A stretch of DNA of 60,341 nt, filler included, from Hausera hauseri (taxonomy: Eukaryota): NCBI GenBank assembly GCA_046269625.1. It is 10 parts of 10 records of this genome, joined end to end, with 100 filler letters (N's around TTAATTAATTAA, not from the genome) between each part and the next. Parts side by side here need not be neighbours in the genome. Positions count along the whole stretch, not along the records: positions 6,134 to 16,136 come from JBJURY010257734.1; 9 more parts are not named here. One strand, 5' to 3'. The notes under the pieces are model-generated. The model saw nothing but the letters and a program-made list of their open reading frames with translations. It did no database searches and was not told where the DNA came from. Positions 6,245 through 34,694 of this stretch are shown here, one piece after another; position 1 is the first letter of the stretch; every line of letters begins with the position of its first letter. The position numbers and the translations under genes were made by a program.

Positions 6245-8237
6245 TAGGACCTGTGAATTTTATCCAAAACTAAGAAATATCCGACTAGAAGAAGTCCAGC
6301 ATTTGACAACTAAATTTATCGACGAAATCTCAATTCAAGATCAGGAAACTTTACATATATGTGAAGAACATAAAGCAGCCCTAGAAGAAGCAATGAGATT
6401 CATACGTAAACCACAAGAATATATGGCCGGAACAAATCAGAACTGCCATACTGAGTTGACAAAAATAAGGAATGACCAACATATTAGTTTTAAAGAATCT
6501 AAATTCAGTAAGAAATTGCTTGATGCGATAGATCCCGACTTCAAAATCATTAATGAGATGTATTAGTTAGCTTTTCTCTTGGTGGAAATGGCAGAAATTA
6601 ATGACTAGAAGATGAGACAATTTATACTCAAGTTGCGAAAAGTCGAAGAAACATGCATTAGAACCAAACAAAGAGCAACTAGGCTGGCCGAACTAATAAA
6701 ATAGCTGGAAATTTATCGGAACAAATATGCTTTTACCGAGTCAAAAATTAAAGATGAATGTGAATTTGTACAAAGATGGCAAAGAGATATAATTATCAAA
6801 CTAATTGATTATCACCAAAAGGGATTCATTCATTCTAATGAATTAGGCGAACTATTGAAAATGATTCAGTATGCATGTGGAAACAGAATAGGTTTCCAAA
6901 CTACGCAGATGAATGAAATGCAACGGAGATTAAAGGAAATTCGAAAAAACGTGAACAGAATGAATACAGCGTTGACAGACTACGGGCTTCCTGACGTTGG
7001 AAATGAACCGGAATGGATGCACTAACGGTCGAAAACCCTGGTACTGCTGTACAGCTAAATGAAGTAGAAATCTGTCCGCAAAATAGGCGATTCAATATGG
7101 AGATGCTCCTGGATTCAGCGCTAACTGAAAGGGATTTAATTGAACTAATTAATGTAAACATTACTGAAAATAAGCTAAGGCAACTTATTCCGACTTTAAC
7201 TAAATTATCTAGTGAGAAGATAATTTATAGCGTAATGCCAAAGCTTTTGATAAGGAAATACGCTAAAATTTTTAGGGCTAAACCCGAGGTAACGATAAAA
7301 GTAAGGATACCTTCCGAGTGGATGGACAAAAAAGAATGCGAGTTAATTACTTATTCCTATGTAATGGACGTAAGAAAATGGTTAATAAAAATGGTTGAAC
7401 AAGCGAGCTAAATTATAGATTCTATTTTAGAGGGAGAATATTAGACGAGTTAGAACAACTAATAGACGTCGGGATTATACCCCACGAAACAAAATGAATA
7501 GTAGTAGTAATAGCTGGTGAGCAGATTAAAGAAGAAGCGACATGTAAAGCTAAAATAGAACAATGCGTAGGACAAATCATGGGAGACCGAGACGCTACAA
7601 TGTACTTTGAGTACTTACAAACAGACGAAGATAGGGAACAATACGACAAGAATCTTGTGCCACTGAGTATAATGTCAACAACCGTTCGGAAACAGAGATG
7701 TCCAGTAGGTAGGCCTAGAAAAATTCAAGAAGACGTTGATTATAACGGAGAATTGATTAGAGAATTGAGACAGATATCAATCCCTACCTTCAGCACAAGC
7801 AATGAAGAACTGAGTGAATGAATGAAGAATTTAATACGAATCGTAAATTATTCTATCCTTCGGGGCGACACGTTAAACGATAACGAGAGAGCGATATTTA
7901 ATGCAGCCAGAATGATGAGAAGTTCCTGTTTAAAGTTATCAAAAAGTAACTAAATCGATGAAGCAGTAGCCGAGAAAATCATGGTGGAGAATACAATAGA
8001 AGAGCTAAGAAAAGTAATACTGTACTTAGCCGTCAAGACATATCCTAGTTGGGAACAAGAATTTAGTCGAGCTACAAGATTAGCACGAAGAGCGGCAAGG
8101 AAGCTACCTGGAAAAGTAAATTGGTCAAGATTATTCGATAAAGAAGAAGACAAAAGAACCGGTAATAGTAATAAACTCGAAGATATGTTGCGTAATTTGA
8201 TAACGACGGATGTGGTGGCCGGAAGAAGAAATCAAAT
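6245..8237 (+). pseudogene. C-terminal part of the unknown polyprotein region, including a ubiquitin-like domain (~7290-7512) and an AT-hook (RCPVGRPRK)
   Basis: ORFs 6303, 7013, 7579 and 7981 align with copy B (17500-19460) and copy C (29980-31915, minus); the lesions fall at different places in each copy. Confidence 0.8.
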
Positions 8238-10094
8238 TGGTTAATCAGCTTACTTACCTTCATGATGTTATTAAAACAAATAGGTGCTGTTACTGTCTAC
8301 AATTGCGACAGGTTCAAACTCGGACAGAAATACTCTTTAATGGACTTGGAGGTATGCGATGACGCCAGACCGCATAAACTAGAAACGAGAGAGAAAAGCT
8401 ACTTCCTATATCCACAGCAAGAATTAATATCGTTGGATGGAATGGAATGTATGTTGAGACTATCTCGTAGTATCTTTCACTGTAGACTAATGCACGGACA
8501 TTCTTCGATAATTAAACCAACAACTCCAATTCCAATGAATTTGGAATGCCAGCACTGCAAGCAAGCCAGGGAAACCGGAAGATTAAAATTGGATAATATG
8601 GAATTAGAGATGCAACCAGAGAAGATAATTAGAGCATATAAAGTACTGGTCGGAAGGCTAGATATGCATAACGTACATTGTAACGGAGCAGAGTATGACA
8701 CACGGAAAGGGGCTAGAATCGAATGTAATGGTCGTCGATTTTTATGAATCAGAGATGCGGGTACAGAAAGTAATGTTCCATAGCGTCACCAAGCTATATA
8801 CCGAGAATCAAAAATGTTATTTACAAGACGGAACCTGTGCCTTCCGAAGTTCTGTTATAATATGGGAATTTCCCTCTGGAAGAAACTGTATTTTTTTAAA
8901 TTAAGGAACTGAAATTTAACGAAATTACAGGGAAACGATATGTAAATAAACTGACACCAGCTCAACAACACGCGAGGACGTATCTCAACACCATACGCCT
9001 ACGATACTAATCTCCGACCAGCATTGACTAAAGTTTATTAAAAAAGAAATGATCTCTCTTTGTGAAGCATTCTTCGTCGCAGAAACGGAGATAAATGTAA
9101 AAACCTGTAAATTAGAAACACAGGACATTTGGTTTGAGGATAACCTGAAAAACCGAGACGACTATTTTTACTACAAAGGCCAAGTTGGGATAGACGAACT
9201 ATATCACAAAATGATAACGAATGATTGTAAGCTGGATATGGAAATCATGAGAACAAAACTAGCTCTTATCTTTGCTAACCCTGAATTAGCCTCGCCAATA
9301 ATTCCAATGGAAGAACGAATTTTCGGTCGAGTTACAGGTGAAGTTTTGTTGACTTATGAATGTGAAAAACGGGACGTACCAATCAATGTCGAAGAAAAAC
9401 GATGTATACAAGACCTCCGCGTTATTTGTCAGAACACTCCACGATTAGCCATGCCACTTACTGCAGTATTGTTAGATAATGCGACTCAACCAACGATCCT
9501 TAAAGATTATAAAGCAAGCTTAGAGAATCAATGTTTAGACATAGCGAAGCAAATTGGATTAGTTTGCCGAATGGAGGTATTACTGCCGCTCCAAATAAAC
9601 TAACAGGAACAAATCTGGCAAAAAGGATTACCGACGATAAGTTTCAAGATACCTCGTCAAAGGGCATATAAAGGCCTAAAGAGATCAAAGCCTTCAGATA
9701 ATTTCTCGCTTTACCGCGACAGCGGATACATTAATTAAATCGAGCCATGGCCTCAGTAGTAGATGATACTCATTATCAGGCTAAAGGGGGATCTCTGCTT
9801 GGTGTAAATATTTACCAGCGAGTAACCACAGAAATACTCTACAGAATTTGGGGAAGACTTTTGATTTTTGGACAAGCCGCCTCGGGATTCCTACCGATAT
9901 ATTTCCTGATACAAATGATTAAGGCAGTTATTCATGCAGTAATAAATGGTTATGAAATATTTACATTGACTGGATTTTCATGCAAGATACAGACTTCAAT
10001 TATAACGTATTTTGGAAAATGCTTGAAAGCGTACGAAGATAATAGATGGAAATCAGACGTAGAACGCCACGTCGGCTGCCACAATCGTAAATGA
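8238..10094 (+). pseudogene. env: Envelope glycoprotein of chuvirus/Jingchuvirales G type (class III fusion protein)
   Basis: Signal-like WLISLLTFMMLLKQIGA followed by VTVY(D/N)C..YSLMDLEVC, C..RSIFHC.LMHGHSSI, C..ARETG, HCNG, CYLQDGTC..IW, RVTGEVLLTYEC..RCIQDLRV, SKGIY, and the membrane-proximal/TM segment IWGRLLIFGQAASGFLPIYFLIQMIKAVIHAVINGYEIFTLTGFS. This Cys spacing and C-terminus match chuvirus G as I know it. Confidence 0.85.
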
Positions 10095-11012
10095 AAAGGA
10101 AGACTTATGTTCTTATACAAGCGGAAGATCACAAAACCTAACACGGGAAGAAATAACTCAGATGATGACAAGCCCAATGGAGGAAAAGTAATTCCCAGAA
10201 CAGACCGACACAAGACGTATTCCGTCATTAAAGCACCATTGCCTATGCTGCCCCCTACCTCTTCTGTCTATGAAAACTGCGATAAACGATCAATGAGCTC
10301 ATATAAGACGGAAATTTATAAAAGAACAATTAGTTTAGAAGACCCCTACAAGGGAACAAAACGTTATGGAGTTCAACAAAAAATGTGTTATCGACAGCCC
10401 ACAGATGATCACAGAATATTGTATTCCCCGAGAGAATCTCGGAATATAGAGACGAGATCACCTATCTGGGAAAATTCAAGGTTAAAAACCTTCCAAAATG
10501 TAGAATTACATACTAACAATCGAGAACAATTAATTAGTACTCATGAAATGGAAGAATTGAACATCAAAAATAATGAATTATATCCCAACCGAGAACTAAG
10601 ACAATTGACGGAGAACATAGTATCTTCCCTGGAAATCCGAATCAACGGACATAAAATGTCGAAGATTAAACGCCCAAAAGCTGCATTTAACTGTTTTGGA
10701 ACAGTAATAGAAGGAAGACCTTTTGCCAAAATTATTATTGAAGACTGGGAAGTTTATGCATTAATCGATACAGGTTCTGAGATGTCTTACATTAAAAATG
10801 ATTCAGTACCTCAAATGCTAAGAGGAAAATTATACCCACCATCTACAATGGATCCAGAAAGCACAGGAGCTTTCGGACAAATGTCGAAACCAATGTTTAA
10901 ATGGAATTCAGAAGTCCAAATAGTTGGAAGGTTTTTCCGTCACGAATTTTCAGTTATGGAACAATTGACTGACGATGTAGTTTTAGGATGCAACTTACTG
11001 AAAAGACTATAG
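10095..11012 (+). pseudogene. pol: Linker and retroviral-type aspartic protease
   Basis: RPFAKIII..ALIDTGSEMSYI ... DVVLGCNLL (DTG catalytic motif and the ILG-D-like motif). Confidence 0.9.
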
Positions 11013-12975: not shown

Positions 12976-14201
12976 ATGTCAAAAGGAAGACAACTAAAGA
13001 AACATTTACCCAGGCACGGACATAAATACTGTGTCTTGTATGACAAGAACAGCGAAGACCTTTTGTATTACGAAAGAAAAGGAAGAAAATTAATAGTCAT
13101 CCCAAAAAGCTTAAGCATCGAAGTTTTAATTGCAGAACACGATTCATATTTGGCAGGACACATGTCCTGGAAGAAAACATTAAAAAAAATATTGAATAAA
13201 TACTTTTGGCCCAGTATCTATATTGATGTAATAAATGGATGAATGCTTCCAAAGTATGTGCCACTAAACAGAAAATGACAAAGAACTACATGGCAGAGCT
13301 AAAACCGATTGCCCTACCGGATAGACCTATGCAAGCCATGTCAATGGATATCATAGGACCGCTTCCTACGACCGACAAAAACAATAAATATATCTTAACT
13401 TGTATTGATCGACTAGCTCATTTTGTCGAGTTGATAGCTTTAATCGATCAAAAGGCAGAAACTTTGGCCAAAGCCGTGGTAAGAAGAATCATTTGCCGAT
13501 ATGGACCAAATATTAGCGGATCGAGGAAGTAACTTTACAAGCAAACTATTTGAGAAGATTACCAAAATATTTAAAATCGAGCGGTTGACTACTACTGCGT
13601 ATCAACCTCAGTCTATTGGAATGGTTGAACAAATGATTGCAACTATCATACGCATACTACCAACAGTAGTAGCTAAGGACCAAAAAGATTGGGACAAATT
13701 CTTAGAAGGAACTCAATTTGCAAATAATACCACCCAACATCCGGCAACAGGATTTACGCCATTTTTCACGATGTATGAACGAGAAGCTGTGTTAACCACA
13801 GACTTAGGAATGACGCCGTACACGGTCAGTCCCGAAGATTTGGAGCAAAACTTTGCAGAAGTATTACAGACGCGACTAAAAAATGTTGATAAATCGCCAA
13901 GGAGTTATCCCAAGAATATCAAGAACAGTTTAAAAGGCAATATGATACGAAAGCGAAACCGCATGATTTAGAACAAGGAAATTGGGTTTACGTACATTAT
14001 CAAATATCCAGAAAAGGTACGTCGTTAAAATTGACTCATGCAGGCAGAGGACTATACGAAGTTACCAGAGTTACGCAAACTACGGTGTACATCAACAAGA
14101 GTGGAAAGGAAGAAGTCGTGACTGTACAAAGAGTTGTTAAGAGGGAGATACTGCCCAATAAACGCTACAATTTACGCCAACGCGAGATAAAAACTTCTTA
14201 A
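12976..14201 (+). pseudogene. pol: Integrase
   Basis: H..AGH..KT..YFWP zinc-binding region, MDIIGPLP, DRGSNF, AYQPQSIGMVE, TGFTPF, and a C-terminal RYNLRQR. Confidence 0.95.
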
Positions 14202-15420
14202 ATAATTGCTAGACCGATATCATAAGTTCAGATAGTTTTAGCACTATCGTTAATTGCTTCTTATATTCCGAGAACACACATTCAATGGTGAGACGATGAA
14301 TCTACGCTAGGAGACGTTTACGGAATACGGAAAAGCGGACTAACGGCGAAAAATGCCATAGCGAAGAAGAAACCAACAGCTGAACTTTTCGCCAGACGCT
14401 GTGTGCGCTGGATTTAAGACTCAAAGACCACATCACGATTTCAGGAAATTTCAGATTGTCCTATACGACGTAACAGTGAAGGAAGTAAAAAGTGTGATTT
14501 TGAACCCGGAGATTATACCCAGTGCTGCGATATAGACTTTGTACATACTTACAATCTTACTTATCGCCTGTACTTACCAGACTCAGCAGAAGACTATATT
14601 GAAATAAACCCCTCACTTCAGTTGGTCATTCCTGCTTGGATCAAACGATTTGAAGTAAAGCCCAATGAAATGCTTCAATCCACCTACCAAAACGTAAGGT
14701 TATTAGCGAGAATATTAAAGAAATCTCAATAAACAGAGATGAACGATGTATTCAAGTGGATGTCGAATGGAATTAACCCATAATCAAGCAATCAGTATTT
14801 TTTGAAGATGTAAACGGAAAAACTCCGAAAATAAAATACTATTTTGTTTATGCCGGTGTGCAAAACCCATGTTGTAAACTACCAGTAAACCAAGAATTCA
14901 AAATAAAGTTTGACTTATATAAAGTACAACCGAATAAACCGAGCAAACATTTGCGAACTTACTACCCGGAGAATAGAATATGGAAGATTTCAAGCGAAAC
15001 GACAACCAAAAAGACAACTACTCGGGTTTGTACCGTTGCGAGAACCGTTACATCGGGCAGTACGCCTAAGGAAAATATACTGGAAAGTATACATACTTGG
15101 AAAGTATACCTATTAAGTATTCGGCGTATCGATCTAAAATCGTGTTCTTTGTAGAAGAAAAATTAAATTACAATATACACATAAGCTGCCGAACAACGTA
15201 TAATGATCAAATTGTAACATTACTTAAAAACACTGACCAGACAGAATGCAATTTGTTAAAACCGCAATCAGATTACATAGTACAAGTATATGCAGATATT
15301 AAACAAAACCAAACACCCCATCATAGCTACGAATTAGAAACCAGTTTTCAGAGACATCAAACCAATGAGACAAGTCGAGACACGTCGACGACTAAATCTC
15401 CTAAGACAATCCCATTATAA
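14202..15420 (+). pseudogene. Post-integrase surface-protein ORF (hydrophobic signal-like stretch, Cys-rich region, FN3-like domain, Thr-rich stalk); no TM in this copy
   Basis: VQIVLALSLIASYIP, several Cys, TTTKKTTT, and LLKPQSDYIVQVYA (FN3-like LKP.T.Y...V.A). Homologous to 28707-29636 (minus). Confidence 0.65.
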
Positions 15421-15464
15421 CGTCACCTCTTCTGACGCAATAGGCTCACCTGATGATGCCGCTC

Positions 15465-15476
15465 AGGGAGGAGAAA
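15465..15476 (+). promoter_or_regulatory. Polypurine tract
   Basis: AGGGAGGAGAAA immediately precedes TGTTG; an identical sequence is at 26055-26066 (minus). Confidence 0.9.
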
Positions 15477-15916
15477 TGTTGGAAAATATCAGCAGTGTCG
15501 TGCCAACCACAAATGTGACAGCTGATCGGAGTTAATAAAAGAAATTTTTGAGCAATAAAATATTATAGAGGAAATAATATATTTTATGTACATAATAAGC
15601 AATGGTATGAGAGGATTTAATTGTATATAAATACAATAAATGAAAGTACAAAAGTTTGTATTTGCGACAAAGGAAATAAACAGAATAATAAACACCACCG
15701 GTAGAATAGCGCGAATATATATAAGCGGGAGGAAGATTAAAAAGAATCAGAAAAATCTGACGACAGCAGCCAGAGATTCAGAAGAATTAACTCTTAAAGA
15801 CTATTCTATTGTGATCTGACCGACTTCGTGAATTCTTTGAAAAGTCGTATCGTGTAGTCAGTTTCTTGGTAATCGTTTTATTTTAATAAAGGTTATGATC
15901 ATGTCTCACAGCAACA
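15477..15916 (+). repeat. 3' LTR of copy A (440 bp)
   Basis: Starts TGTTG after the PPT and ends CAACA; TATATATAA at 15716 and AATAAA at 15885. Confidence 0.85.
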
Positions 15917-18524
15917 GCTGTGCCCCCAAGGTTGCTTTGCTCTCTCAAACAGACTACTTTAATCTACATCATAAACTACACATTATTCCCTCTTAGAACC
16001 AAACTCTTAAAAATTGAAAATAAAACAGTGGTTTGAGTTTTGTTACTGACTGTTGCTCTGTGATGCACAAGCCCGAGCTTGATTGAAGGAAACAAAAAAG
16101 GTGCATGATAAAAACGGAGTATGGTCGTTCGCATCTNNNNNNNNNNNNNNNNNNNNNNNNNNNNNNNNNNNNNNNNNNNNTTAATTAATTAANNNNNNNN
16201 NNNNNNNNNNNNNNNNNNNNNNNNNNNNNNNNNNNNTGGAGCCATTAATACTTAAAATTACGAAAAATAGAGGCCGTAGTCCCTCATTGAAAACGAAACG
16301 TAGAAGGCGTTCGCGTTCACAAGTAACTAGAGAGAAAGTAGAAGAAATGAGAAAAACCGACATCGCTGCAGAGAGTGACGTACAGCCTAGCTTAAATACA
16401 ACATAAATTGGCCCATTCACACCTATCGAGACAAAAGAACTGATAGAGTTTATTAATAAAATTAACGAGATTTGCCCACTTCCCACAAGTGAAGAAGAGA
16501 CGCAAAATATTGAAGATTTTGATGCAAGAAACTGGAAAGTCCGACATTCGTGGAAAAACGCCGATGAATTAAAGAAAATGAGAACTAGATGCCATGATCC
16601 AGAAATATTACAACGAAATTTGGAAAGGATTAACGGACAAGTAGATATATCTGGCAAAGAGCAAGAGTTTGCTGAAAAGTTATATAAAATTTATAATTAT
16701 GTCGTGAAGGAAAGCTTGATGACGCAATCGACTTAGGACAACCTGAAGAGGTAACACCCGAACTTTGATAAAATGGAAGCATGAATTAGAATCATGGGTT
16801 AAAAGTGGAGTCGAATTTTCGGAAGGATGGAGCAAAAATGAAGGTAGTGTTGAAGTAAAAGTCTCTAAAGCTCAGACGCTACTGTCTACCTTNNNNNNNN
16901 NNGAGTAAATCCAAAACAGAAGAGAGTAGTCCGTAATTTAGAGCGTATGATGGATGAAATCCGCTGTGCAATGATTAATCGGCTTAGAGAAAAACCGGTT
17001 AGCAATCGAAGTGATATAGATTTAGAAATATTGGGTATAGACCCAGTAGATATTCCTCCCTTACTGGAGATGATAAAAATTGCCTTTGCCGAACCTAGAC
17101 AATATGCTAATTTAGAGAATCGTATTAAAACGGAGAATGAAAAGAGATCACAAATTAGGAGCTTGAGAAATCGAATTATGTTTATGAAAAACGAAGAGAC
17201 CAATTACGTAATAAATGATTGTATTGTATAATTTGATGAATATAAGTATGAGTTCAATTATGTCAGCCGGATTATGAATTTCATAAAGGGTCCAGATGAC
17301 GAATTAAAGGATGCATATAAAATGCTAGACAAGGCAATATTGGCAAAACCAGTAATCGCCAATCAATTGTCGAAATGGTCCGAATTAATAAGGAGGCTAA
17401 GTAATTTAGTATACCATAAGAAAGAATTTTCAGAAAGCGAACCATCTGTTAAAAAGCAATTAGAAGAAAATGCACGTAACTTACANNNNNNNNNNCGAAA
17501 TATGACTTGCGATTTTTACCCTAGATTAATGAATATCCGACTAGAAGGAGTCCAACATTTAACAGATAAACATATAAACGAAATTTCAATTCATGATGTC
17601 GAAACTCTAGATATCTATCCGGAACAGCGTATCTTTAGAAGAAGCAATAAGGTTCTTACATAAACAACAAGAATGGATGACCGGAACAGACCAGAATTGC
17701 CATACTGAGTTGACCAAAATAAGAAGCGACCAAAATCTTAGTTTTGAAGAATCTAAGTTCGTAAAGAAATTGATCCCGACTCAAAAATCATAAATGAGAT
17801 ATATGAGTTAGTAAATGGCAGAGATTAATGATGAGAAGATGAAACAATTGATGCCCGACTTACGACAAGTTGAAGAAACGTGCATCAGAACTAAACAAAG
17901 AGCAACGAGGTTATATGATTTGGCAGAAGTGCTCGGAATCTACCGGAACAAATATGCTTTTACCGAATCAGAAATCAAAAATAAACGCTAGTTTGTACAA
18001 AGGTGGCAAAGAGATGTAACTATTGAACTAACTGATTATCACCAAAAAGGATTTATCAATTCTAATGAATTAGTCGAACTACTGAAAATGATTCAGTATG
18101 CCTATGGAAACGGAATAGGATTCGGGACCACGCAGATGAAAGAAATACAGCCAAGGTTAAAAGAAATTCGAGAGAATGTACAAAGGACAAATACAGCAAT
18201 AATAGACTATTGACTTCCAGACGTTGGAAATGAACCGGAATGGGACGCGTACTCAGATGCATTAACGACGGAAAATCCGGTGACTCCAGTATAGCTAAAT
18301 GAAATAGAAACGTATCCTCAGAATAGGAGATTCAGTGTGGAGATGCTTCTGGATTCAGCGCTAACTGAAAAAGATTTAATTGAACTAATTAACGTAAACA
18401 TCACTGAAAGTACATTACGACAACCTTAACTAAATTACCTAGTGAGAGTACAATTTATAGCGCGGTGCCGAAACTTTTGATAAGGAAATACGCTAAAACC
18501 TTGAGGGCTAAACCTGAGGTAGCG

Positions 18525-18743
18525 ATAAAGGTAATGGTATCATCCGAGTGGATGGATGAAAAAGAATGTGAGCTAACTACTTATTCCTATGTAAGGGACG
18601 CAAGAGAATGGTTATTGAATAATGGTGGAACAAACGAGCTAAACTATAGATTCTATTTTAGAGGTAGAATACTAGACGATTTAGAGCAGTTAATAGACGT
18701 CGGGAATATTCCCGACGAAACAGATCGAATAGTGGTGATAGTA
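18525..18743 (+). CDS. Ubiquitin-like (beta-grasp) domain within the polyprotein
   Basis: IKVMV...YRFYFRGRILDDLEQLIDVGN..IVVIV aligns without gaps in the core to ubiquitin [21 protein letters not shown]; length ~73 aa; no terminal GG. Confidence 0.7.
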
Positions 18744-19462
18744 GCCAACGAACAGACAAAAGAAGCCACGCTTAAGGCTAAGACGGAACAGTGTGTAGGA
18801 CAAATTATGGGAGTCCGAGGTGCTGCAATGTATTTTGCATATTTACAAACGGATGAAGATAAGGAGCAATACGATAAGAATTTAAGCCACTAAGTGAAAT
18901 AAAAACTAATGTTCCAAGACAGAAACGCCCAGTCGGCAGGCCCAAGAAGACGCGAGAAGGGTTTGACTATAACGAAGAATTGATTATAGAATTGAGACAG
19001 ATATCGATACCTACTTTCAACACAGACAATCAAGAATTAAGCGAATTAATGAATAATTTAATACGTATTGTAAATTATCCAAGCCTCCGAGGCGATACAT
19101 TAGATGATAAAGAAAAAGCGATATTCGATGCAGCAAGGAGGATGAGAATTTCACGTTTAAATTATCGAAAAGTAACTTAACCGATGAATCAGTGATCGAA
19201 AAGATCATGGTGGAAAACACCATGGAGGAATTTAGAAAAGTATTACCATACTTGTTTGTTAAAATAAACCCTAATAGAGAGAATAAAATTAATATGGCTA
19301 AATCTTACACAAAGAGCGGCGAGAAAACTACCCTGCGAAGTAAATTGGTCGAGGTTATTCGAAAAGGAAGAAGACAGACGGACCGGTAATAGTAATAGAC
19401 TTGAAGATATACTACGTAATTTGGCAACGACGGATAATTGTAACCGGAAAAACGAATCCAAT

Positions 19463-21350
19463 TGGTTAATCAGCCTACTCACCTTGATGATGCCAATAAA
19501 GCATATAGGTGCGGTTACCGTGTACGACTGCGATAAGTTTAAATTAGGACAGAAATATTTCTTAATGTACTTAGATGTATGTGAGGATGCCAGGCCGCAT
19601 AAACTAGAAACGAGAGAGAAAAGCTACTTCCTAGATAAACAACAAGAATTGATATTGTTGGACGGAATGGAATGCATGTTGAGACGATCTCGTTGCATCT
19701 TTCACTGTGGATTAATGCGCGGCCATTTTTTAATAATCAAACCAACAACCCCTCCGATTCCGATGAACTTGAAACGCCAGCATTGCAAACAGGCTAAGGA
19801 ACCCGGACAACTAAAATGGGATAGCATGGAACTAGAGATGCAACCAGGAAAGATAATTAGGGCATACAAAGTAGTGGTTGGAAGGCTAGACATGCATAAT
19901 GGTCATTGTAATGGAGCAAAATACGACACCGGAAAAGTACTAGAAGCTAACGTGATGGTGGTAGATTTTTATAAATCGGAGATGCGAGTGCAAAAGGTGA
20001 TGTTCCACAGCGTCACCAAGCTATGTACAGAAAATCAAAAGTGTCATTTAAAAGACGGCACGTGTGCTTTTAGAAGTTCTGTTATAATATGGGAAACTCC
20101 CTCTGGAAGAAACTGTAATTTTATCAAAATTAAGGAATTGATATTTAACGAAACTACCAGAAGCGATATGTAGACAAATCCAACATCAACTGAAGTCACG
20201 CGAGGGCACTGCAGAACACTCTACACCTACTATATTGATCTCCGACCAGCATGGACTAAAATTTATTAAGAAAGAAATAATGTCTGGTTGCGAAGTGGTG
20301 ATGTTCACCACCAAATATGAAGCATTTTTCGTCGCAAAAACGAAAATAAATGCGAAAACTTACAAGCTAGAAACGCAGGACATTCGAGTTCAGGATTACC
20401 TAAAAAACCAAGACGATTACTTTTATTACAAGGGACAAGTCGGAATAACCGAATCATATCACAAAATAATAACGAATGATTGTAAATTGGATACGGAAAT
20501 CATAAGGATAAAACTGGCCCTTATCTATGCTAACCCTGAGTTAGCCTCTCCAATAATTTCTATGAGAGAAGGAATTTTCAATCGAGTTACCTGTGAAGTC
20601 ATATTGACTTATGAATGTGAGAAAAGAGACGTACTAATCAACGTTGAAGAAAAACGTTACATACAGGAACTCCACGTTATTTACCAGAATACTCCAAAAT
20701 TAACCACGCCGCTTACTAGAGTGTTATTAAACAATGCAATTGAACCAGCAATCCTTAAATATTGTAAAGCAAGTTTAGAAAGACCAATGTTTAAACGAAA
20801 CGAAAGAGATTGGGTAAGTTTGCCTAACGGAGATATTACTGCCGCTCTAAACAAATTATAAGGAAAAAATCTCGCGAAAGGAATTACGGACGACAAGTTT
20901 CAAAACATCTCTTCAAAGGGCATATATAGGCCTAAGGAAATCGAAGCCTTCGGACAATTTCTCGCTTTTTCGCGACAACGAATGCACGAATTAAATCGAG
21001 CCATGGCATCCGTAGTGGATGATACTCGATATCAAGCTAAATGGAAATCATTGCTGGGTGTAAATCATTACCAACCAGTAACCATAGAAATACTCTACAA
21101 GATTTGGGGAAGAATTTTATTTTATGGACAAGCCGATTTTGGATTCTTAGCAATATATTTCTTAATCCAAATGATTAAAGCTGTATTCCAATCAGTAATA
21201 AGTGGTTATGAAATATTTACATTGACCGGATTTTCATGTAAAATACTGACTGCAATCATAACGCCTTTTCGAAAGTTTTTGAAAGCATACGAAAAAAATA
21301 GATGGAAATCAAACGTAGAACGTCATTTTGGTTATCATAATCGTAAACGA
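19463..21350 (+). pseudogene. env: Chuvirus-type envelope glycoprotein, copy B
   Basis: ORFs 19421, 20235 and 20982 carry the same Cys pattern (VYDC, FHCGLMRGH, GHCNG, CHLKDGTC) and TM region as copy A. Confidence 0.85.
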
Positions 21351-21723
21351 AAAGGAAAACCTTTGTTCTTGTACAAGCGGAAATTCACAAATCTAATATG
21401 CGAAGAAATGCTTCAGACGATGACGAGCCTAAGGGAGGAGAAGTACTTCCAAGAACAAACAGGCATAAGACGTATTCCGTCAGTAAAGAACCATTGCCTA
21501 TGCTATCCCCTACTGTGCCAGTCTATAAAGAGTGCGACAAACAATCAATGACCTTATATCAGACAGAAATTTATAAAAGGATAATTAGTTTAGAATACCC
21601 CTACGAAGGGAAGAAGCGTTATGNNNNNNNNNNNNNNNNNNNNNNNNNNNNNNNNNNNNNNNNNNNNTTAATTAATTAANNNNNNNNNNNNNNNNNNNNN
21701 NNNNNNNNNNNNNNNNNNNNNNN

Positions 21724-25618: not shown

Positions 25619-26054
25619 TGTAGCACTCGAAATATTTGATGCTGCGATTTTGGTTTTATTGTTTAATTCAACACTGAGCTTCATAAATTCAACTGAATCG
25701 ACTGAATCGCTTTGCGATTTTAAAACTGTCTCCACTAGTTTCAACTCGCAACGACAACTAGTTTTCTCTCTAACCGATTTTAAGTCTATCTATATATATG
25801 GTGAAATGACACGTGCATGCTGATTAATATTTTCTTTGGACTAATTTCAGATTGTTTTTTGTTTTCAACAGTTTTCCAATAATTTATTTTCGTAAGTTCG
25901 ACAAATACTCCGGAAATTATTAAAAATACGGCAAATTTTCCTGATTATTGTTTTCTAATTATACAGAAAATTTTTAAATCCATATAAATATAGATAATGC
26001 TAAAATAACATACAATTCTATACACTTTTAATTGATGTGTACAATTTTGCAACA
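25619..26054 (-). repeat. 3' LTR of copy D (~436 bp)
   Basis: On the minus strand it starts TGTTG directly after the PPT, has a TATA near 25790-25798 and AATAAA at 25655-25660, and ends GCTACA (copy A ends GCAACA). Length is nearly identical to copy A. The distal end is less certain than the proximal end. Confidence 0.7.
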
Positions 26055-26066
26055 TTTCTCCTCCCT
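26055..26066 (-). promoter_or_regulatory. Polypurine tract
   Basis: AGGGAGGAGAAA on the minus strand, identical to copy A. Confidence 0.9.
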
Positions 26067-26124
26067 GAGCTGCATCATCGCATGTGCCTATTGCGTCAGG
26101 AGTGGTGACGCCCATTTAGTGTCA

Positions 26125-28597
26125 TTACAGTAGGTCCAGTATACGCCGGAGACTACTGTCATCGAATGGGTCAGCAGGGAACCTTATTTCATCCACTTCT
26201 AATTGGTAATTAGTGCTGGGTTGGATTTGAATTTGGACTAGTCGATTACACTCGCCATTTGAGAAATATTTTAATCCGCTTGCCTCAGCCCGACATACTG
26301 GGGACGTGGTTTTCCCGTTTTCTAGGGTCCATGTTTCTAGGCAAGTACGACAGTACTTATGCCGGCATTCCCTGTTATCCATTTTAACGTATCCTTGCCA
26401 AATATTTTCTTTACAAACTGGGCAGATATCTTCGTCTTCGTTAGTATTTTCATCATCGAGGTCTATTTAGGGAATAATTCTAATTCGTTCAAATGCTAGT
26501 CCGTCATGATCACAATATAGGTAACCATGAAGTTCTTTTTGCTGAATGTTAATCGAGCTTTTCCGAAGATCATAGTTTACCAGGACCAACGTCCAATCTA
26601 TAACGGTTTCTTTATCCAGATCGGGAATTTTGCCTTCTCTCTGGTATGCCTGGTATTGCTTTTTCAACATTAATTTGATCTGGGCGTTCACGGGAATTGA
26701 CAGTTTGCCTGTTCTCTTTGATTTGAATACTGGGACTAAATATTGTCTAATTTTCGGGTTCCCCCAAACGTATTCACCATCTGGGGTATTACGCATTCCG
26801 GCGTTCTTCACATCGAATACTGCTTCCTTCAATTTCTAGTGGCTGCAGTATTCCGCTGTAATTAGTAGTTTTGGGTAATCCTTGGTTGTTGAATAGTGAA
26901 TATTTTCATCGGATCTCTTTCTTAAGTACGTTCACTCCGGAAAATACTAGTATAGAATCGGTTGCTGACTTTCTTCTTGGTGCATGGGTGCTATGTTTTC
27001 TTTTGAGCTGTTCGAACTGAGTTATATCCACCTCATTTCGGGATTCTTTGATAATTTGAAGATTTTCTTCTATTTTCTTCTTTTTCTTCTAAATTTTTAC
27101 TCCTTTCAGAACATTTTTCCCCTCAGGCAGCTTTGTCTCCTTCACTGATTTCCTTCCTCCCTTGTCTTCTTTACGATTTCTCTTCTTAAATAGATAATCA
27201 TACAGTGATAGTTTTCTCTTATTCATGGGCACTGTGGTTTCGGCTTCTTCTTCATTGGTGTTGCTGACTTTTTTCCGATACCCTTGCTAAATTTCAGGTA
27301 TCTTAAATATCGTTTGTGGTTCTACATACGTTGTTCTAGCCTTGGAGCTGGGGCCGTGGCTAGTGCTAGGTCTATCATCCATCTTTGCTGGAGTAGTAGT
27401 TGGTCCTGAGCTGGCTACTTGTATTGTTATTTTGTAGTTGGCTCGTTCTGTAGATTCGACAGTTCTAGAAGGAGAACGTGGTCCGAAGTACCTTCTGTGT
27501 CTAGCGCTCAGCTTTTCTGGAGCTTCTCAAGTTCTGGCTTGCATTGTCGGGAACCTATTCATGGTCCCATTTTAGTCCTGCATATATGTCGCGTTGATAT
27601 TGTAAACGCTGACTAGTTGTCAGCAATCAGCTTATTCTTACGTGTTTCCCGTTCATTGCTTTGAGCATTAACTTAAATTGTCTTTCAACGGTCGGTAGTA
27701 GATAACCATTTCTTGATTTAAGGGTTTGTACCATTTGCTCCATTATAACAGAGTGGGTTACTATCTCTCGCTTTCCTGCTACATGCGTGATTGGTAGTTC
27801 CAATGTTTCCATGATCCTTTCCACTTGATACCCGGCGATGATACATCCATATAATCAGTGGGTCAATTCTTCTCTGACCAGTTCGATATCCTTTCCATGG
27901 GCTAACTGTTCCTTTTCTAATCCAGTACCTTTTGAGTAAGTTTCTCTTACTCTCTTTCTCGAACTGATTATTTTCGGGTGAATTTCCGTTCCTCCTATCT
28001 CTCGAATGAACACTTCTATTGTAATATCGTTTCCGTCATATCCTTCTCCATAATTCACAGACATGATTCTGGAGTTCCGAGCATCCTGTACGAATCTGAA
28101 GGAGTGCAGATATTTTTCTCGACCTTTTTCTGTAGGTTCTTGTTTAAATTGTAAGGGCGGTAATCAACTTAACTGGCAATGCGGCAACTCTGAACTCTAG
28201 TTCACAGTTATAGTGATGGAAGTCGCCACTGTTCATCAAGAAGGTGCTGTAGCTGTGTTGTAGCCCTTGCGAGGAATCCCAAGCTTGGTCCTTCAGCCTG
28301 TAATAGATTCCTCCGTGTGCTACGTGAATAAATATGTTCTGATGATAGACACGTTCATATTGGATTAATTGTTGCAAGGCACACGCTCACGCATCTCATG
28401 GCATACAGACGTACTGTCCTATTCTCTTGTGTAGTTCCTTTAACATTATTGGGAATTTCACGAGTATGCTTGTATTCTACGAATGTTTTTCCTTGTAATT
28501 AGCTGTTAATTTGTCGGAATGTCGATTTGGATTGGAGAATTTACACTGTCGCACATTTCTGTAAGAAGTCGTGGATACTATGTCGACTTGTTTCCAT
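26125..28597 (-). pseudogene. Element accessory ORF ending in a C3HC4 RING finger (putative E3 ligase)
   Basis: EDEDICPVCKENIWQGYVKMDNRECRHKYCRTCLETWTLENGKTT(S)PVCR. Upstream fragments 26467, 27627, 27855 and 28144 lie on the same strand. The 5' boundary is inferred from a Kozak-like GCAGCCATGG. Confidence 0.7.
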
Positions 28598-28706
28598 GGC
28601 TGCTTGAGTACTTACCAATCTGAAAAATAAATGATAAGGGCTTATTCTCTGTTTGATAATAGAATAACCCGATCTGTAATTGTCAGGTTATTTTATCATA
28701 CATATA

Positions 28707-29636
28707 CTATTGGGGTTCCAATACCCTTAATTCTCTCTCTATGACATTAGAACGCTTACTATGGCAATTTTTGGCAACTGATCGAAAAGTCGCTATGAAA
28801 ATTATTAGCACGAACGTTGACAAACTTGCGATCATTATGATTTATAAAGTCGTTAATCCTTGGGGTTTTACAGAAACAATTTCTGTTGTCATGTCGAGTT
28901 CTGTGTCTTTGGTCGAGTGTGGTTTTGCCTGAATCTCATTTAAGGTATATAGTGCGAAAGTTTGACTCTGTTTGTCTTTTGCGTTTATTTGTATATATCC
29001 AGATTTTGGCTTTAATAAGTCACATTCAGTCCGATAAGTATTTTTCAATATGATTACTTCTTTATGATTATACATTGTACGGCAATTTATTTCAACGTCA
29101 TAGGTGAGCTTTTCTTCAACGGAAAACACTATTTTACACTGCTGTATCAAATATTTAACCGAAATCTTAACTAATTTCTTTTAGGCATTTTCCTTACCAT
29201 AGTGAGCCTAACAGTGGTGATCACTTGAGTGGTCGGTTTCTTCGTCGTTATATCGACTGCAATTTTCCAGACTCTACTGTCCGGATGATATCTTCCTAAA
29301 TAGGTAATCGATTTATTTATTTGAATTTTGTAGAGGTCCAACTGAAATTTGTACTCAGCCTTCCGGTATTCTACAATATTGATCTGGTCTCGCGTTTCCG
29401 ATGCTACAATAATTCGGAGACGGACTTGACTTATTTATTTTGATTAATCGAACTGAAATCTCCTGGTCGTTTGACAATCTTCCTTTCGTATTTATTTGGA
29501 TGCATTTGTCTTTCTTATCTTCCGAAATACCAATTATGTTTTCATCCAACACCCATTTTATCGGATCTGTTGATTGTACTATGTCGGTGAAATCTGTTAT
29601 ATTAATCCGTTCTCTAGTGGGTATCACTAATTTTAT
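28707..29636 (-). pseudogene. Post-integrase surface protein, copy D, with FN3-like domain, Thr-rich stalk, TM helix and short tail
   Basis: KIVFSVEEKLTY..CRTMYN..LKNT..TECDLLKP matches 15097-15420. It is followed in frame, past one stop, by IIMIASLSTFVLIIFIATF-RSVAK. Confidence 0.7.
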
Positions 29637-29736: not shown

Positions 29737-29978
29737 TGAAAAATGCTTCGTAATCGTCTCAGCATGCATTCGATTCCGTCTAGCGATATCAATTCTTGCT
29801 GCTGATACAGAAAGTAATTTTTCTCTTTTGTCTCCAACTTGTGTGGTCTAGCATCCTCGTATGCTTCCAGATCCATTAAGGAATATCTTTGTTCTAGCTT
29901 AAACTTATCGCAGTCGTAGACGATTACAGCACCTATGTGCTTTATTAGCACCATCAAGGTGAGTAAGCTAATTAGCCA
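29737..29978 (-). pseudogene. env: N-terminus of the chuvirus-type glycoprotein, copy C
   Basis: WLISLLTLMVLIKHIGAVIVYDCDKFKLEQRYSLMDLE. Confidence 0.85.
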
Positions 29979-32900
29979 ACTCGATTCATTTCTTCGGTAT
30001 CCAACGTCCACCGTCGACAAATTACGTAACATATCATCGAGTTTATTATTGTTTCGTTTGTCTTCTTCGTTGTCAAATAGTCTTGACCAAATTTACTTCG
30101 CAGGGCAATCTTCTTGCTGCTTTTCGTGCTAAACTTATAGCTCTATTGATTTCATTCTCTCGATTAGGATTTATTTTGATGGTTAAGTATAGTAATACTT
30201 TCCTCAATTTCTCATTGGTTTTCTCTACCATTATCTTTTCCATTACCGACTCGTCGGTTAAGTTGCGTTTTTGGCTGCATCGAAAATTATCTTTTCTTTA
30301 TCGTCTAATGCATCACCTTGAAGGCTTGAATAGTTTACAATTCGTATCAGATTCTTCATTGGCTCATTTAATTCTTCATTATCTGTGCTAAAAGTCGGGA
30401 TTGACATTTGTCGCAATTCTCTAATCAATTCTCCATTGTAGTCTACTTCTTCTCGTGTTTTCTTGGGCCTACCTACTGGACGTTTCGGCTTTTGGCCTTT
30501 AGCTGTTATTTCACTCAGTGGTATTAAATTTATATCATATTGCTCCTTATTTTCATCCGTTTGCAAATACTCGAAATACATTGCAGCATCTCGGACTCCC
30601 ATAATTTGTCTTACATATTGCTCTGCCTTGGCCTTACGCGTAGCTTCCTCTCTTGTTTGTTCGTTAGCTATTACTGCAACTATCCGGTTCGTTTCGTTGG
30701 GAATAATCCCGACATCTGTTAGTTGTTCTAGGTCGTCGAGTATTCTACCTCTGAAGTAAAATTTGTAGTTCAACTTGTTTGTTCTGCCGTTGTTTATCAG
30801 CCATTCTCTTATATCTCTTAGATAAGAATATGTAGTTAACTCGCATTCCTTTTTGTCCATCCATTCGGATGATACTATTACTTTTATTGTCGTTTCAGGT
30901 TTAGCCTTTAAGATTTTAGCGTATTTCTTAATTAAAAGTTTCGGCACCGTAATATAAATAAATAAAAGTTAGTGTCGGAATAAGTTGCCTTAATTTACTT
31001 TCAGTGATGTTTACGTTAATTAGTTCGATTAGATCTTTTTCAGTTAGCGCTGAATCCAGGAGCATCTCCACATTAAATCGTCTGTCCTGCGGACATGTTT
31101 CTATCTCGTTTAATTGTACTGGAGTCATGGGCTTTTCGGTCAGTATTGCGTCGAAGTATGCATCCCATTCTGGCTCGTTCCCGACATCTGGATGTCCAGC
31201 GCCTACTAAGGCTACATTCGTACTCTGCACATTTTCTCGGATTTCTCTCAACCTAGACTGTATTTCTTTCATCTGCGAAGTTCGGAAACCTAATCCGTTT
31301 CCGCATGCGTACTGAATCATTTTTAGTAATTCACCGAATTCGTTAGGGTCGATGAGTCCCCTTTGGTGATAATCTGTTAATTCGATAATTACATCTTTTT
31401 GCAATCTTTGTACGAATTCTCGCCTATTTTTGACTTATGATTCCGTAAAAGCATATTTGTTCCGGTAAATTTCGAATTCTTTTGTTAGTTCGTCTAGCCT
31501 CGTTGCTCTTTGCTTCGTTTTGATGCACGTTTCCTCGGCTTGTCGTAATTTCGGCATTATTTGCCTCATCCTCTCCTCATTAATCTCTGTCATTTCTACA
31601 TTTCGTTTATGATTTTTGAGTCGGGATCTATCGCGTCTGACAGTTGCTTTACGAACGTAGCTTTCTGAAAACTAACATGTTGGTCATCTTTTATTTTTAT
31701 CAATTCGGTATGGAAGTTTTGATCTGATCCGGCCATCCATTCTTGAGGTTTATGCAAAAATTTTATCGTGTCCGTTAAAGTGATTCGGTGTTGCGGGAAA
31801 ATATTTAGTGTCTCGATATCTTGGACAGAAATCTGGTCAATGGGTTTATCGCTTAAATACTGAACCCCTTCTAATCAGATATTTCTCAATCGTGGATAAA
31901 AATTACAAGTCATATTTCGCTTTTCGGTAAAACTCGTCTCTTCGATCATTTCATAGATCTCTTCCAGTATCGTTGCTTCTTGTTTCTTCTTCATAAAATT
32001 TAGTCGTCGTAATGCTTCGAATTTCGTTCGGATATCTATTTCCGCTAGTATTGTATCTAGCTTACGTGCGCTTTCTTCTAACTGCTTTTTTACAGAAGGC
32101 TCATTTTCAGGGAATTCCTTCTTACGGCTCTCCACTAATTTGCTTAATCGCATTACTAATTCGGACCATTCCGACAGTTGATTTGCCATTATTGGCTTGG
32201 CCAATATAGCCTTATCTAGCATCTTGTATGCATCTTTTAACTCATCGTCCGGTCCTCTTAGGAAATCCATAATCCGGCCGACATAACTAAACTCTTCCTT
32301 GTACTCGTCCAACTCTACGATACGAGCTTTTATTACATATTGAGTCTCATCGTGATTTGGGGATATGATTCGATTCCTCAAGCTATAAATCTGTGCTCGC
32401 TTTTCATTTTCTGTCTTAACTCAATTTTCTAGGTTTGTATATTGTTTGGACGTAGCAAATGCGATTTTTACCATTTCCGTCAAGGGAGGAATATCTATCG
32501 GGTCTATACCCAATATTTCTAAATCGATATTACTTCGGTGGTTAACCGGTTTTTTCCTAAGCCGATTAATCATTGCGTGACGAATTTCATCCATCATACG
32601 TTCTATATTCCGGACTACTCTCTTTAGTTTTGGATCCGTTTCTAAGGAAGACAATAGCGTTTGAGCCTCAGCGACTTTTACGTCGACACTATCTTCACTT
32701 TTGCTCCATCCTTCCGAAAATTCTACCCCGCTTTTGATCCAAGATTCTAATTCATACTTCCATTTTAACAGCGTTTCAGGTGACACCTCTTCTGGTTGTC
32801 TCACGTCGAGCTTCCCTCCACTATATAGTTTCAAACTTTTATATAATCTCTCCGCATACTGCTGTTCCTTTCCCGATATGTCTACTTGTTCGCTAATTTG

Positions 32901-33728
32901 CTTAAGCCTCTCTAAATTTCGCTGCAGTATTTCTGGATTGTGGGATCTAATTCTCATTTTCTTTAATTCATTGGCGTTTTTCCACGAACGTCAAACTTTC
33001 CACTTCTTTGGATCGAAATCATCAGTAATCTCTGTTTCTTCTTCACTAATGGGAAGTGGGCAAATCTCGTTAACTTCGTTACTTGACTCTGCAGACTCCG
33101 TTACCTCGACAGGGGTAAGTGGCCCCATCTCTGGTGTATTCAAACTATGTTCCGTGTCGCCTCCTACGACGACCTTCGCGTTTTCCGTTTCTTCCCTTTT
33201 CTCTCTGGTTATTTTGGAGCATGAACGACTTCTACGTTTCATCTTAAGGGAAGGGCTGCGGCCTCTATTTTTCGTAATTTTAAGTATCAACGGTTCCATA
33301 AATTCTTTTTCCGCTGCATCATCATCAATAGACTTATCTACTTTTTCAACTGTTAACTCAGGCTCTGTGTCTAAGTCGACTGCCGTCGATGTGCCTGGTT
33401 TATCAGATGTTTTATTACTTGTCGGAACACTCTTTTTCCGTGTCATATCAATACGTTTAGGTTTTATTGCGTGTTCATATTCCGTTTCTGGTTCGGCTAG
33501 GCCGTGATATACTTCTGGTAGTCTCAACTTATCTCCGTATTCTTTTCTAGCCATTAAAATTCGCAAGTTAGCAGTATTCGGCTGAGCATCTAAGAATCTT
33601 CGTAAGTTTTGTATGTCGATGATAATACCTGTGTCTCCACGAACACCATATTTTGCTTCTAAATTTTCATTGATTCTAATCATATTAGTCTTATTTGGCT
33701 CAGTAAATGAAAGGCTACGCCGATTTGG
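29979..33728 (-). pseudogene. ~1,250-codon unknown region between the Gag zinc knuckle and the glycoprotein: charged/helical segments, ubiquitin-like domain 30669-30887, AT-hook KRPVGRPKK
   Basis: ORFs 32991, 32421, 31875, 30928 and 30258 are colinear and separated by single stops or frameshifts, several of which are open in copy B. Confidence 0.8.
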
Positions 33729-34694
33729 ACGACCTTGAAATATGTCCTTCTTTACCGCAAGTGAAACAGACTAAATTTCCATTTCTGCCGATTCTGTCGA
33801 CCGTCTTCGTTTACCGGTGACTTAGATCTATTTATACTTTTATTATACTGGTTTGACAAACTTTGCGCATTATCTGCATTTCGTCGATTATCATTATTTC
33901 GGTTATCGCCGTTTTGATTCGAGTAGTTCGAGCATTTATAATCTTCTCTATTCCTATCCCAGTTTAAATCTGATTTATTCATATTAGTATAATTATTGCC
34001 TCGGCTATATCTATAACTGTTATTATTATTTCGGTTCCCATAATTTTTGTTACCCTTAAATCGTCTGTCATCTCTTCCACGATTGTCATTCCGATTTCTG
34101 TCGATGCGATCACTTCGATCATTATTTCTGTCCTTTCTATCATTATGTCTGGCATATCTGTCGAGTGCCATTTCTAAATCCTGAGCCAACTGTAGAGTTC
34201 CTTCAAAATTTTCGGGCCTAGCCAAAATTAATTGTTTAACCAAATCTCGCGACCAAATACCATGGATTAATTGAGTCGTCATCATGACGTCTAAATCTGG
34301 CGGTGTTGCCTTTTCTGCGGCATCGCGTTCCGCATCTGTTTTAGCTCTAGCTACGTTGGCTATTCGCAGTGTGTTTATGTAACTATTGGCAAGTTTTTTT
34401 AACGCAAATGCAAATTAGGTTACTGATTCACTTTTTGTTGTACTCTATTCTGAAATGCCATAAGCTTTTGCTGAGGCGTTACAGTCGGTAATAATTTATG
34501 ATTTAATGCTCCTACCAGGGAGGACCAAGATTTCTTCTCATAATTAGTACGTTCGCTATACGCGTCAGCAGCTAGATCCTTCAGATATAGTGACAAGCTT
34601 CAGGAGTAAGGCTAGCACCTTCTGCGTGCAATTTATAAGTTCTCAAGAATTCATTAAGCCCGTCTGGGTCGCCATCGTATGCTGGCAGGTTTAG
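33729..34694 (-). pseudogene. gag: Gag (capsid, Asn/Arg-rich linker, CCHC zinc knuckle)
   Basis: LPAYDGDP..LNEFL, LSLYLKDLAADAY, NRVQQK.ESVT.FAFAL..LA (major-homology-region-like), QLIHGI, P.NFEGTLQLA..LE, and the frameshifted knuckle CFTCGKEGHISR at ~33730-33768. Confidence 0.85.

Follow-up and report, generated by a model that had tools for sequence, protein, structure and literature searches.

What does a Ty3/gypsy retroelement encode between its integrase and its 3′ long terminal repeat (LTR), the canonical env position, when a fusion glycoprotein gene already lies before pol? The question is raised by a stretch of DNA from Hausera hauseri (GenBank assembly GCA_046269625.1), hereafter the window, which comprises 60,341 nucleotides, joins 10 parts of 10 records with 100 filler letters between each part and the next, and is AT-rich, eukaryotic and interrupted by many gaps. 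Self-comparison, which covered bases 1-52800, revealed several diverged pieces of one Ty3/gypsy element family, designated here copies A to D. For positions 14160-15420 of copy A, an initial annotation had proposed a second surface protein in the frame of the integrase, with a fibronectin type III (FN3)-like domain, a Thr-rich stalk and a transmembrane (TM) segment, either a second envelope protein or the relic of an earlier env. We found that a separate, decayed gene starts behind the integrase stop at 14199-14201 and extends from 14205 to 15420 in copy A. We are highly confident of its anatomy, its fold, its position inside the element, the purifying selection on it and a decay rate equal to that of the element's other genes. 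As read from sequence and models, it is an accessory gene of a Ty3/gypsy element of probable GAG-ENV-POL order, and its product is a predicted type I membrane glycoprotein.

A decayed gene behind the integrase stop

The integrase of copy A ends in RYNLRQR (14163-14183), and between this motif and LQLVIPAW (14616-14639) we found the four in-frame stops that the initial annotation had reported, at 14199, 14223, 14289 and 14415, the first of which (14199-14201) closes the integrase; no ATG occurs within 14160-14290, in agreement with its statement that no Met precedes the hydrophobic stretch. The idea that the integrase frame continues into the new protein was right in part: the protein stays in that frame to about 14680, but two frame changes follow, at about 14660-14705 and at 15061-15097. 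No second copy of the integrase end, including the TAA at 14199-14201, was present in bases 1-52800, where gaps cut copies B, C and D.

When the frame of copy D was searched against 1.84 billion representative sequences, 11 matches were obtained at E<=0.001, and two of them are true relatives: P0002 (479 aa, E 4.6e-32) and P0003 (189 aa, E 5.3e-27), both single-member ENA clusters without a name. The other nine were set aside as covering only query residues 43-134, partly out of frame; three of these were examined and are PKD- or SpaA-repeat proteins. Two further searches gave no new relatives (1 of 3340 candidates, which was the query itself, and 2 of 8000 scored), and an Atlas search with domain 3 of copy D alone gave no usable match. 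The family thus comprises four sequences in all (A, D, P0002 and P0003), with about 40-50% identity in domain 3 across the four lineages.

P0002 is intact, being open from its own Met to its stop, and gives a predicted design of Met, leader, three beta-sandwich domains, a Thr-rich linker, one TM segment and a short tail. It has a hydrophobic leader, 12 cysteines, four N-glycosylation sequons, a Thr-rich stretch at about 290-320, one TM segment at about 429-450 and a basic tail ending in YxxI-T; its type I topology (signal peptide, single TM segment, short tail) is read by hydropathy and the model only. Domains 1 and 2 are repeats of each other (score 75, reached by 0/2000 shuffles), while the similarity of domain 2 to domain 3 is weak (45/2000) and that of domain 1 to domain 3 is nil (1754/2000). 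Copy A aligns to residues 10-390 of P0002 in three frames, from just behind the integrase stop, and its leader is 67% identical to the leader region of P0002 (Table 1). The terminal YxxI-T is common to P0002, P0003 and copy D, the three sequences that reach the C-terminus, and a terminal YxxI is a typical sorting signal.

The 5′ part of the gene in copy D has been lost in a gap; the remaining frame covers residues 158-479 of P0002 (E 3e-41) and is 45% identical to residues 29-189 of P0003, with frameshifts at about 29370 and 29180, stops at 28844 and 28709 and a terminal stop at 28685-28683. The motifs by which the two copies had originally been paired were all recovered: LQLVIPAW matches IKLVIPTR at the start of copy D (29636), and TTKK.TT occurs at 15002-15022 in A and at 29248-29228 in D. 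The TM helix claimed for copy D is likewise there by hydropathy, and aligns with the hydrophobic helices of P0002 (429-447) and P0003 (142-160), whereas hydropathy revealed no TM helix in copy A in any frame up to the LTR. The Thr-rich stretch, on the other hand, is not a membrane stalk, since it sits between domains 2 and 3. Overall, the protein similarity of A and D is beyond chance (tblastn E 9.7e-19 and 2.1e-08), with 25/50, 48/93 and 10/27 identical residues in the three segments compared.

In both copies a stop lies near the stalk/TM boundary (15418-15420 in A, 28844-28842 in D), with the same codon before it. P0002 and P0003 read through this boundary, and the shared stop may be due to chance or point to a secreted form. 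Although the coincidence with A is noted, the stop of D immediately before its TM segment looks like decay, because P0002 and P0003 have none and because the TM segment and tail of D are conserved, about as much as its ectodomain.

Table 1. Coordinates of the gene, of the element copies and of neighbouring features in the window
Feature	Coordinates	Strand	Remarks
Signal-peptide-like leader, copy A	14205..14336	+	Start codon gone; stops 14223, 14289; hydropathy
Beta domain 1 (C, C, CC pattern), copy A	14395..14640, boundaries approximate	+	Stop at 14415; tblastn to P0002
Beta domain 2, copy A	14687..14995	+	After frameshift; stop at 14774; 35% identity to P0002 182-309
Thr-rich linker between domains 2 and 3, copy A	14996..15096	+	Second frameshift near its end
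FN3-like domain 3, copy A	15097..15303	+	45% identity to P0002 326-390
End of copy A frame	15304..15420 (stop 15418-15420)	+	Without TM helix
Conserved 3′ block, polypurine tract (15467-15476), TG start of 3′ LTR (15477), copy A	15421..15487	+	
FN3 gene, copy D: end of domain 1, domain 2, Thr-rich linker, domain 3, short stalk, TM segment, tail	29636..28683	-	
TM helix, copy D	28841..28785	-	Kyte-Doolittle 19-residue mean 2.71
Two further accessory frames, copy D	28686..27561	-	
Accessory open reading frame ending in C3HC4-type RING finger (from 26424), copy D	27210..26128	-	Directly before 3′ block
Conserved 3′ block, polypurine tract, TG start of LTR (26054), copy D	26110..26044	-	
Fusion glycoprotein gene (class III / Monjiviricetes type), copy A	8241..10050, end approximate	+	Broken by stops and frameshifts
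pol (protease, reverse transcriptase, RNase H, integrase; gypsy order), copy A	10700 (approximate)..14201	+	Broken; Pfam, motif positions
Copy B: long unknown open reading frame and fusion glycoprotein	16237..21623	+	PF24664 E 1.6e-30; gap cuts copy before pol
Copy C: gag-like region, long open reading frame without Pfam match, start of fusion glycoprotein	29737..34694	-	

The gene was under purifying selection. Over 170 aligned codons of A and D, the proportions of nonsynonymous (pN) and synonymous (pS) differences are 0.31 and 0.86, which gives a pN/pS of 0.36 (bootstrap 0.28-0.44), the ratios being uncorrected and pS near saturation. Mismatch rates at codon positions 1, 2 and 3 are 0.34, 0.28 and 0.62, and in a frame-blind permutation test the excess at third positions was reached by 0/1000 and 3/1000, so that codon-level conservation between the copies, on which the initial annotation had made its claim depend, is present. 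Elsewhere in the element, pN/pS is 0.22 for the fusion gene, 0.21-0.26 for the open reading frame (ORF) before it and 0.26 for the RING ORF of copy D; domain 2 of the FN3 gene is somewhat looser (0.42). The premature stops of copy A number 4 in 365 codons of the FN3 gene, 5 in 590 of the fusion gene and 6 in 615 of the upstream ORF. Purifying selection and this equal stop density together indicate that the FN3 gene worked alongside the fusogen until copy A died. They also bear on the possibility that the gene is a passenger, a captured piece of a host gene without a role for the element, or that P0002 and P0003 are host genes. This we regard as very improbable: the missing anchor of A and the tiny family, with two true relatives and 2 of 8000 scored, would fit it, but it is at odds with the purifying selection seen between two element copies whose synonymous sites are nearly saturated, and with four lineages that are conserved in domain 3 to the extent given above, colinear and free of introns.

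Fold of the predicted protein

The AlphaFold2 model of P0002 was built on an alignment of 8 sequences, with no window piece for domain 1, and has a mean predicted local distance difference test score (pLDDT) of 61 and a predicted template modelling score (pTM) of 0.31. In it the leader is followed by three beta domains and then by the TM helix. Modelling is poor for the linkers and for the last part of domain 1; block means of pLDDT are 68-88 over residues 191-290 (domain 2), and values are low at 288-323 (linker). Searched with Foldseek against the PDB, it gave 114 matches at E<=0.001 (best E 1.1e-06), and all 39 listed rows are fibronectin, gp130-family or other receptors built of FN3 modules. 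Residues 321-405 of the model (domain 3) superimpose on FN3-6 of human fibronectin (6msv_A) with Z 9.7 and a root-mean-square deviation (rmsd) of 2.2 A over 80 aligned residues, and many single FN3 domains match domain 3 at Z 7-8. Domains 2 and 3 together align to FN3 pairs at Z 7-8.6 with high rmsd, while domain 2 alone matches Bacteroides DUF3244 proteins and a beta-galactosidase domain (Z 7.3-7.7). A wide fold search topped out at Z 8.4, near the level of common arrangements; a viral fold library had FN3-type proteins among its best rows, and an Atlas feature search returned FN3 clusters at 0.83-0.85, which is lead level only.

Sequence families did not recover this fold. Pfam gave nothing above cut-off for the FN3 protein in the window pieces, P0002 or P0003; fn3 (PF00041) came closest in P0003, with 13 bits against a cut-off of 25 (E 0.12), and was found in neither P0002 nor the window pieces. 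NCBIfam and PHROGs yielded nothing usable for it, and PDB sequences gave 0 matches for P0002 and 3 chance-level matches for the alignment profile. By its modelled structure, domain 3 is an FN3 domain; the assignment of domains 1 and 2 as FN3- or Ig-like is less firm, and for domain 1 it would follow from the repeat homology to domain 2. An FN3 fold in the model and a TM segment by hydropathy, both predicted, are thus what the structural check of the proposed surface protein returned. The FN3-like domain noticed in both copies has the expected fold, although there are three beta domains rather than one.

The fold also bears on whether the region is the relic of an earlier env of fusogen type or a read-through extension of the integrase. 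Its canonical env position and its start in the integrase frame agree with such an origin, which we nevertheless hold to be extremely improbable. Three small beta sandwiches in a row make up the model, no fusion-protein fold heads any of the fold lists, and in the viral library virus glycoproteins occur in weak rows only, although a family may be missing from such lists and still be related. The stop density equals that of the other genes of copy A (4/365 against 5/590 and 6/615), and the purifying selection, too, speaks against a relic. P0002 is complete in itself, beginning with a Met and a leader, and a length-free search with copy D gave no long fused form matching domain 3. Because P0002 is a stand-alone, Met-initiated protein, we could show no meaning for the frame shared with the integrase, and with such a relative in existence integrase read-through would not be needed.

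The element and its 3′ region

Copy A 6245-10368 corresponds to copy B 17501-21623 with 79% DNA identity in the self-comparison, and copy C, on the minus strand, is 72-76% identical to both. We searched Pfam with the three plus-strand frames of bases 1-27502, short stretches at gaps being left out. In copy A the fusion glycoprotein has a hydrophobic leader at 8241 and matches PF24664 above cut-off in three frames (E 8.7e-08, 9.7e-08 and 4.2e-15); RVP, RVT_1, RT_RNaseH_2, Integrase_H2C2 and rve follow in order at 10.7-14.2 kb, the rve match being under its curated cut-off. The gag regions of A and B fall in gaps, and the gag signal is the weak zinc knuckle of copy C at 33768-33742 on the minus strand (zf-CCHC E 0.0011, 19.4 bits, under the cut-off of 20.8). 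From the layout of A, B and C, the probable gene order of the element is therefore gag, unknown ORF, fusogen, pol (GAG-ENV-POL). Copies C and D are possibly one element across the gap at 29637-29736, because they share strand and order and have a similar synonymous divergence from A. A polypurine tract followed by the TG of the 3′ LTR occurs at 15467-15478 in A and 26064-26053 in D; no LTR pair was found within 1-52800, and the 5′ ends of A, B and C lie in gaps. Every copy is interrupted by stops and frameshifts, and identity among the copies is 72-82%, which places them outside the uninterrupted, recent multicopy elements that the text of PMC13524379 gives as its inclusion rule.

An ORF of about 1,200 codons lies between gag and the fusion gene (33770-30000, minus; 6245-8240, plus; 16237-19465, plus). 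It has no Pfam match above cut-off and a pN/pS of 0.21-0.26, and continues into the glycoprotein leader.

The FN3 gene lies upstream of the same polypurine tract and LTR block in A and D, and 59/67 bases of this block are identical between them (88%), against about 62-65% for neighbouring coding DNA. In copy D about 2.6 kb of further frames follow the FN3 gene, the RING-finger frame being the last before the block, whereas copy A is devoid of these accessory ORFs and its frame adjoins the block directly. The simplest reading is an internal deletion of about 2.7 kb in A. Positions 15304-15420 of A may represent a last strand and stalk that have diverged, or else the RING ORF end, moved here by that deletion: the DNA score against the RING-ORF end of D was reached by 64/2000 shuffles and that against the stalk of D by 1053/2000, and at the protein level no test of this segment against either was significant.

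The 3′ block is a candidate cis-acting element; its two copies fold at -18.0 and -12.7 kcal/mol into structures that differ, without a shuffle control.

The RING finger of copy D matches PF00097 (E 8.3e-05, 22.8 bits, cut-off 21), and RING E3 ligases were matched in the PDB. A second copy of this ORF at 24534-25418 (minus) corresponds to 26327-27210 (minus) with 66% amino-acid identity and the pN/pS given above. The domain preceding the RING finger in both copies was without a family match. Searches of Pfam, NCBIfam, PHROGs and PDB sequences with the two frames at 28686-27561 yielded nothing usable. By eye, the frame at 28076-27561 (minus) resembles a DEDDh/REXO-type exonuclease with altered acidic residues, a resemblance that was not confirmed: there was no sequence match, the model had a pLDDT of 39.9 and no fold matched at E<=0.001.

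The window holds further features apart from the element. At 1215-4600 (plus) lies a decayed DNA polymerase B of protein-primed type with an endonuclease VII-like domain (PF03175 E 5e-08, PF02945 E 2.6e-05), presumably Polinton-like, to which 34797-36146 and 48700-50052 (both minus; 74% identical to each other) seem related by eye. At 22600-23550 (plus) there are host exons that resemble an inositol-polyphosphate 5-phosphatase and include a SKICH domain, their introns being short as far as can be seen, and at 42626-44185 (plus) there is an intact, intronless 6-phosphogluconate dehydrogenase ORF (PF00393 E 1.8e-126). Translations of 39961-42100 (minus) resemble, by pattern without a search, piggyBac- and mariner-type transposase remnants. 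A tandem repeat occupies 52881-53399, a long GA-rich low-complexity tract with many gaps at 55200-60341 gives spurious long ORFs, and no tRNA gene was found in the window.

Possible roles and related elements

What the protein did can be approached through its predicted anatomy, namely a signal peptide, three FN3-like domains (the first two are tandem duplicates and contain four Cys apiece), a Thr-rich hinge, a single TM segment and a tail some 28 residues long with YxxI at its end. Our tentative preference, held at somewhat less than even confidence, is that it sat on budding particles or vesicles as a ligand for adhesion or targeting. The gene would have originated as an intronless copy captured from a host FN3 receptor or adhesion gene, and its translation would have been independent of pol, a spliced or subgenomic RNA being the probable template. 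The signal peptide and TM segment would place the three FN3-like modules outside the membrane, and the tyrosine motif may sort the protein to the membrane where particles bud. There the FN3 chain could bind a partner on target cells, plausibly those of the germ line for an endogenous element, while fusion would be left to the class III-type glycoprotein, the FN3 protein being a helpful but dispensable add-on. Drosophila Sas, described below, is a working analogue of such a ligand. A stronger version is two-component entry in an invertebrate lineage of endogenous retrovirus-like elements, as in herpesviruses and paramyxoviruses: the class III fusogen encoded before pol would act together with an attachment protein of host origin, made of three FN3 domains and encoded in the env slot, whose tyrosine tail would couple it to Gag, and the element would also carry an accessory block (RING ligase and others) as in a complex virus. 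We consider this rather unlikely. What stands of the proposed second envelope protein is an element-borne gene for a predicted type I membrane protein after pol and a fusion glycoprotein before it; its alternative description as an earlier env is not supported.

Several points weigh against the adhesion or targeting role. The family that the fusion gene matches is that of viruses whose single glycoprotein both attaches and fuses, so that an attachment partner would not be needed. Copy A lacks a membrane anchor, the linkage of C and D is inferred across a gap, the P0002 model is of moderate quality, and P0002 and P0003 are putative element genes. In the fold searches, ectodomains of cytokine receptors do no worse than adhesion proteins, and in copy D the FN3 gene heads an accessory block with a RING finger, which suggests host manipulation. 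Finally, the text of PMC13524379 describes its gB-type elements (glycoprotein B of herpes simplex virus, HSV) with three ORFs and no second membrane protein.

Some of these observations lead to a receptor mimic or decoy, that is, a surface or shed protein that would soak up ligand, block a receptor or exclude superinfection, as the first gene of a RING accessory cluster. We rate this only slightly below the ligand reading. The ectodomains of gp130, IL-20R, IL-22R1, IFNAR2 and IL-12R are among the best fold matches (Z 7.5-8.6), at 7-19% identity in the structural alignments to FN3-built cytokine receptors. Like the gp130 and IL-10R/IFNR families, the protein would combine FN3 folds in tandem, cysteines (abundant in domains 1 and 2) and a single TM segment, and its short tail is without a signalling domain. 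A WSXWS motif and a cytoplasmic, proline-rich box 1 are the marks of class I cytokine receptors, however, and both are absent from P0002 and P0003; the fold matches, moreover, are generic FN3, with fibronectin highest. The anchorless end of A and the stop that directly precedes the TM segment of D could hint at soluble forms, but P0002 and P0003 have no stop there and the TM segment and tail of D are conserved, so that the stop of D looks like decay. The downstream RING ORF is under selection, and the apoptosis and ubiquitination domains of planarian Burro elements have been read as host meddling (PMC6431247, as described there). Viral decoys of such receptors are known from large DNA viruses and are not known from retroelements.

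A third possibility is an assembly or sorting adaptor whose tyrosine tail would recruit Gag capsids to a membrane or vesicle compartment, the ectodomain being of minor importance; this seems unlikely. The three ectodomain modules and their cysteines are conserved, and domains 2 and 3 are under measured purifying selection, which argues for a function outside the membrane. The tyrosine motifs of Sas and APP are of the NPxY type, and YxxI is not such a motif. Nevertheless, the terminal YxxI-T is present in all three sequences that reach the C-terminus, and the text of PMC10289811 reports that the tyrosine motifs of Sas and APP bind Arc capsid proteins. Drosophila Sas resembles the predicted protein in its three FN3 repeats, one TM segment and short tail with a tyrosine motif; according to that text, the motif binds the Gag-derived dArc1 capsid and Sas targets vesicles to Ptp10D cells. 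It differs in being a host gene of 1693 aa with VWFC domains (PMC10289811), and the likeness is one of analogy only.

Returning to the element that carries the ligand candidate, a GAG-ENV-POL order with an HSV/gB-type env has been published for 'errantiviruses' of Nematoda, Bryozoa and Platyhelminthes (Chary and Hayashi 2026, PMC13524379). As described in that text, these elements share with ours a pol of gypsy order, a class III-type glycoprotein gene before it and, judging by the weak zinc knuckle of copy C, probably a gag upstream; ours differ in the extra FN3 membrane-protein gene after pol, the further ORFs of copy D and the decayed state of the copies, and the word 'fibronectin' occurs 0 times in its main text and 7 text supplements, figures aside. 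The giant planarian gypsy elements Burro/GYPSM1 likewise have env between gag and pol, a long extra coding region and ubiquitination-related domains including a RING zinc finger, but their extras lie in or upstream of a giant polyprotein (PMC6431247, a comparison by description, not sequence); 'fibronectin' occurs 0 times in that review. The bdelloid rotifer elements Vesta, Juno and TelKA are similar in having extra ORFs after pol, among them small TM proteins and DEDDy exonucleases; as described, a single ORF3 replaces env there, whereas here the post-pol membrane gene is additional to the fusogen, and for their ORF3 the text of PMC5408684 has 0 mentions of FN3.

Extra post-pol ORFs, small TM ORFs, RING domains and the GAG-ENV-POL order are thus already known separately, as the texts of PMC5408684, PMC6431247 and PMC13524379 describe. 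Full-text literature listings, subscription papers being outside their scope, brought up no report of an LTR retroelement with a membrane protein of FN3 type. Judged by its sequence, the present locus is a real, selected accessory gene; its reach is limited to four sequences, and its role is predicted only. Cell entry by gB-type errantiviruses is called unknown in the text of PMC13524379, the most extensive survey of gypsy elements with an envelope gene, where herpesvirus gB is said to need partner glycoproteins, and the locus is a concrete, testable candidate partner for that mechanism, with an intact natural version available in P0002. Under either leading reading, ligand or decoy, a captured FN3 surface protein would extend the cargo known from LTR retroelements, and a survey confined to gag, pol and env would overlook the interval between pol and the 3′ LTR in which it lies.

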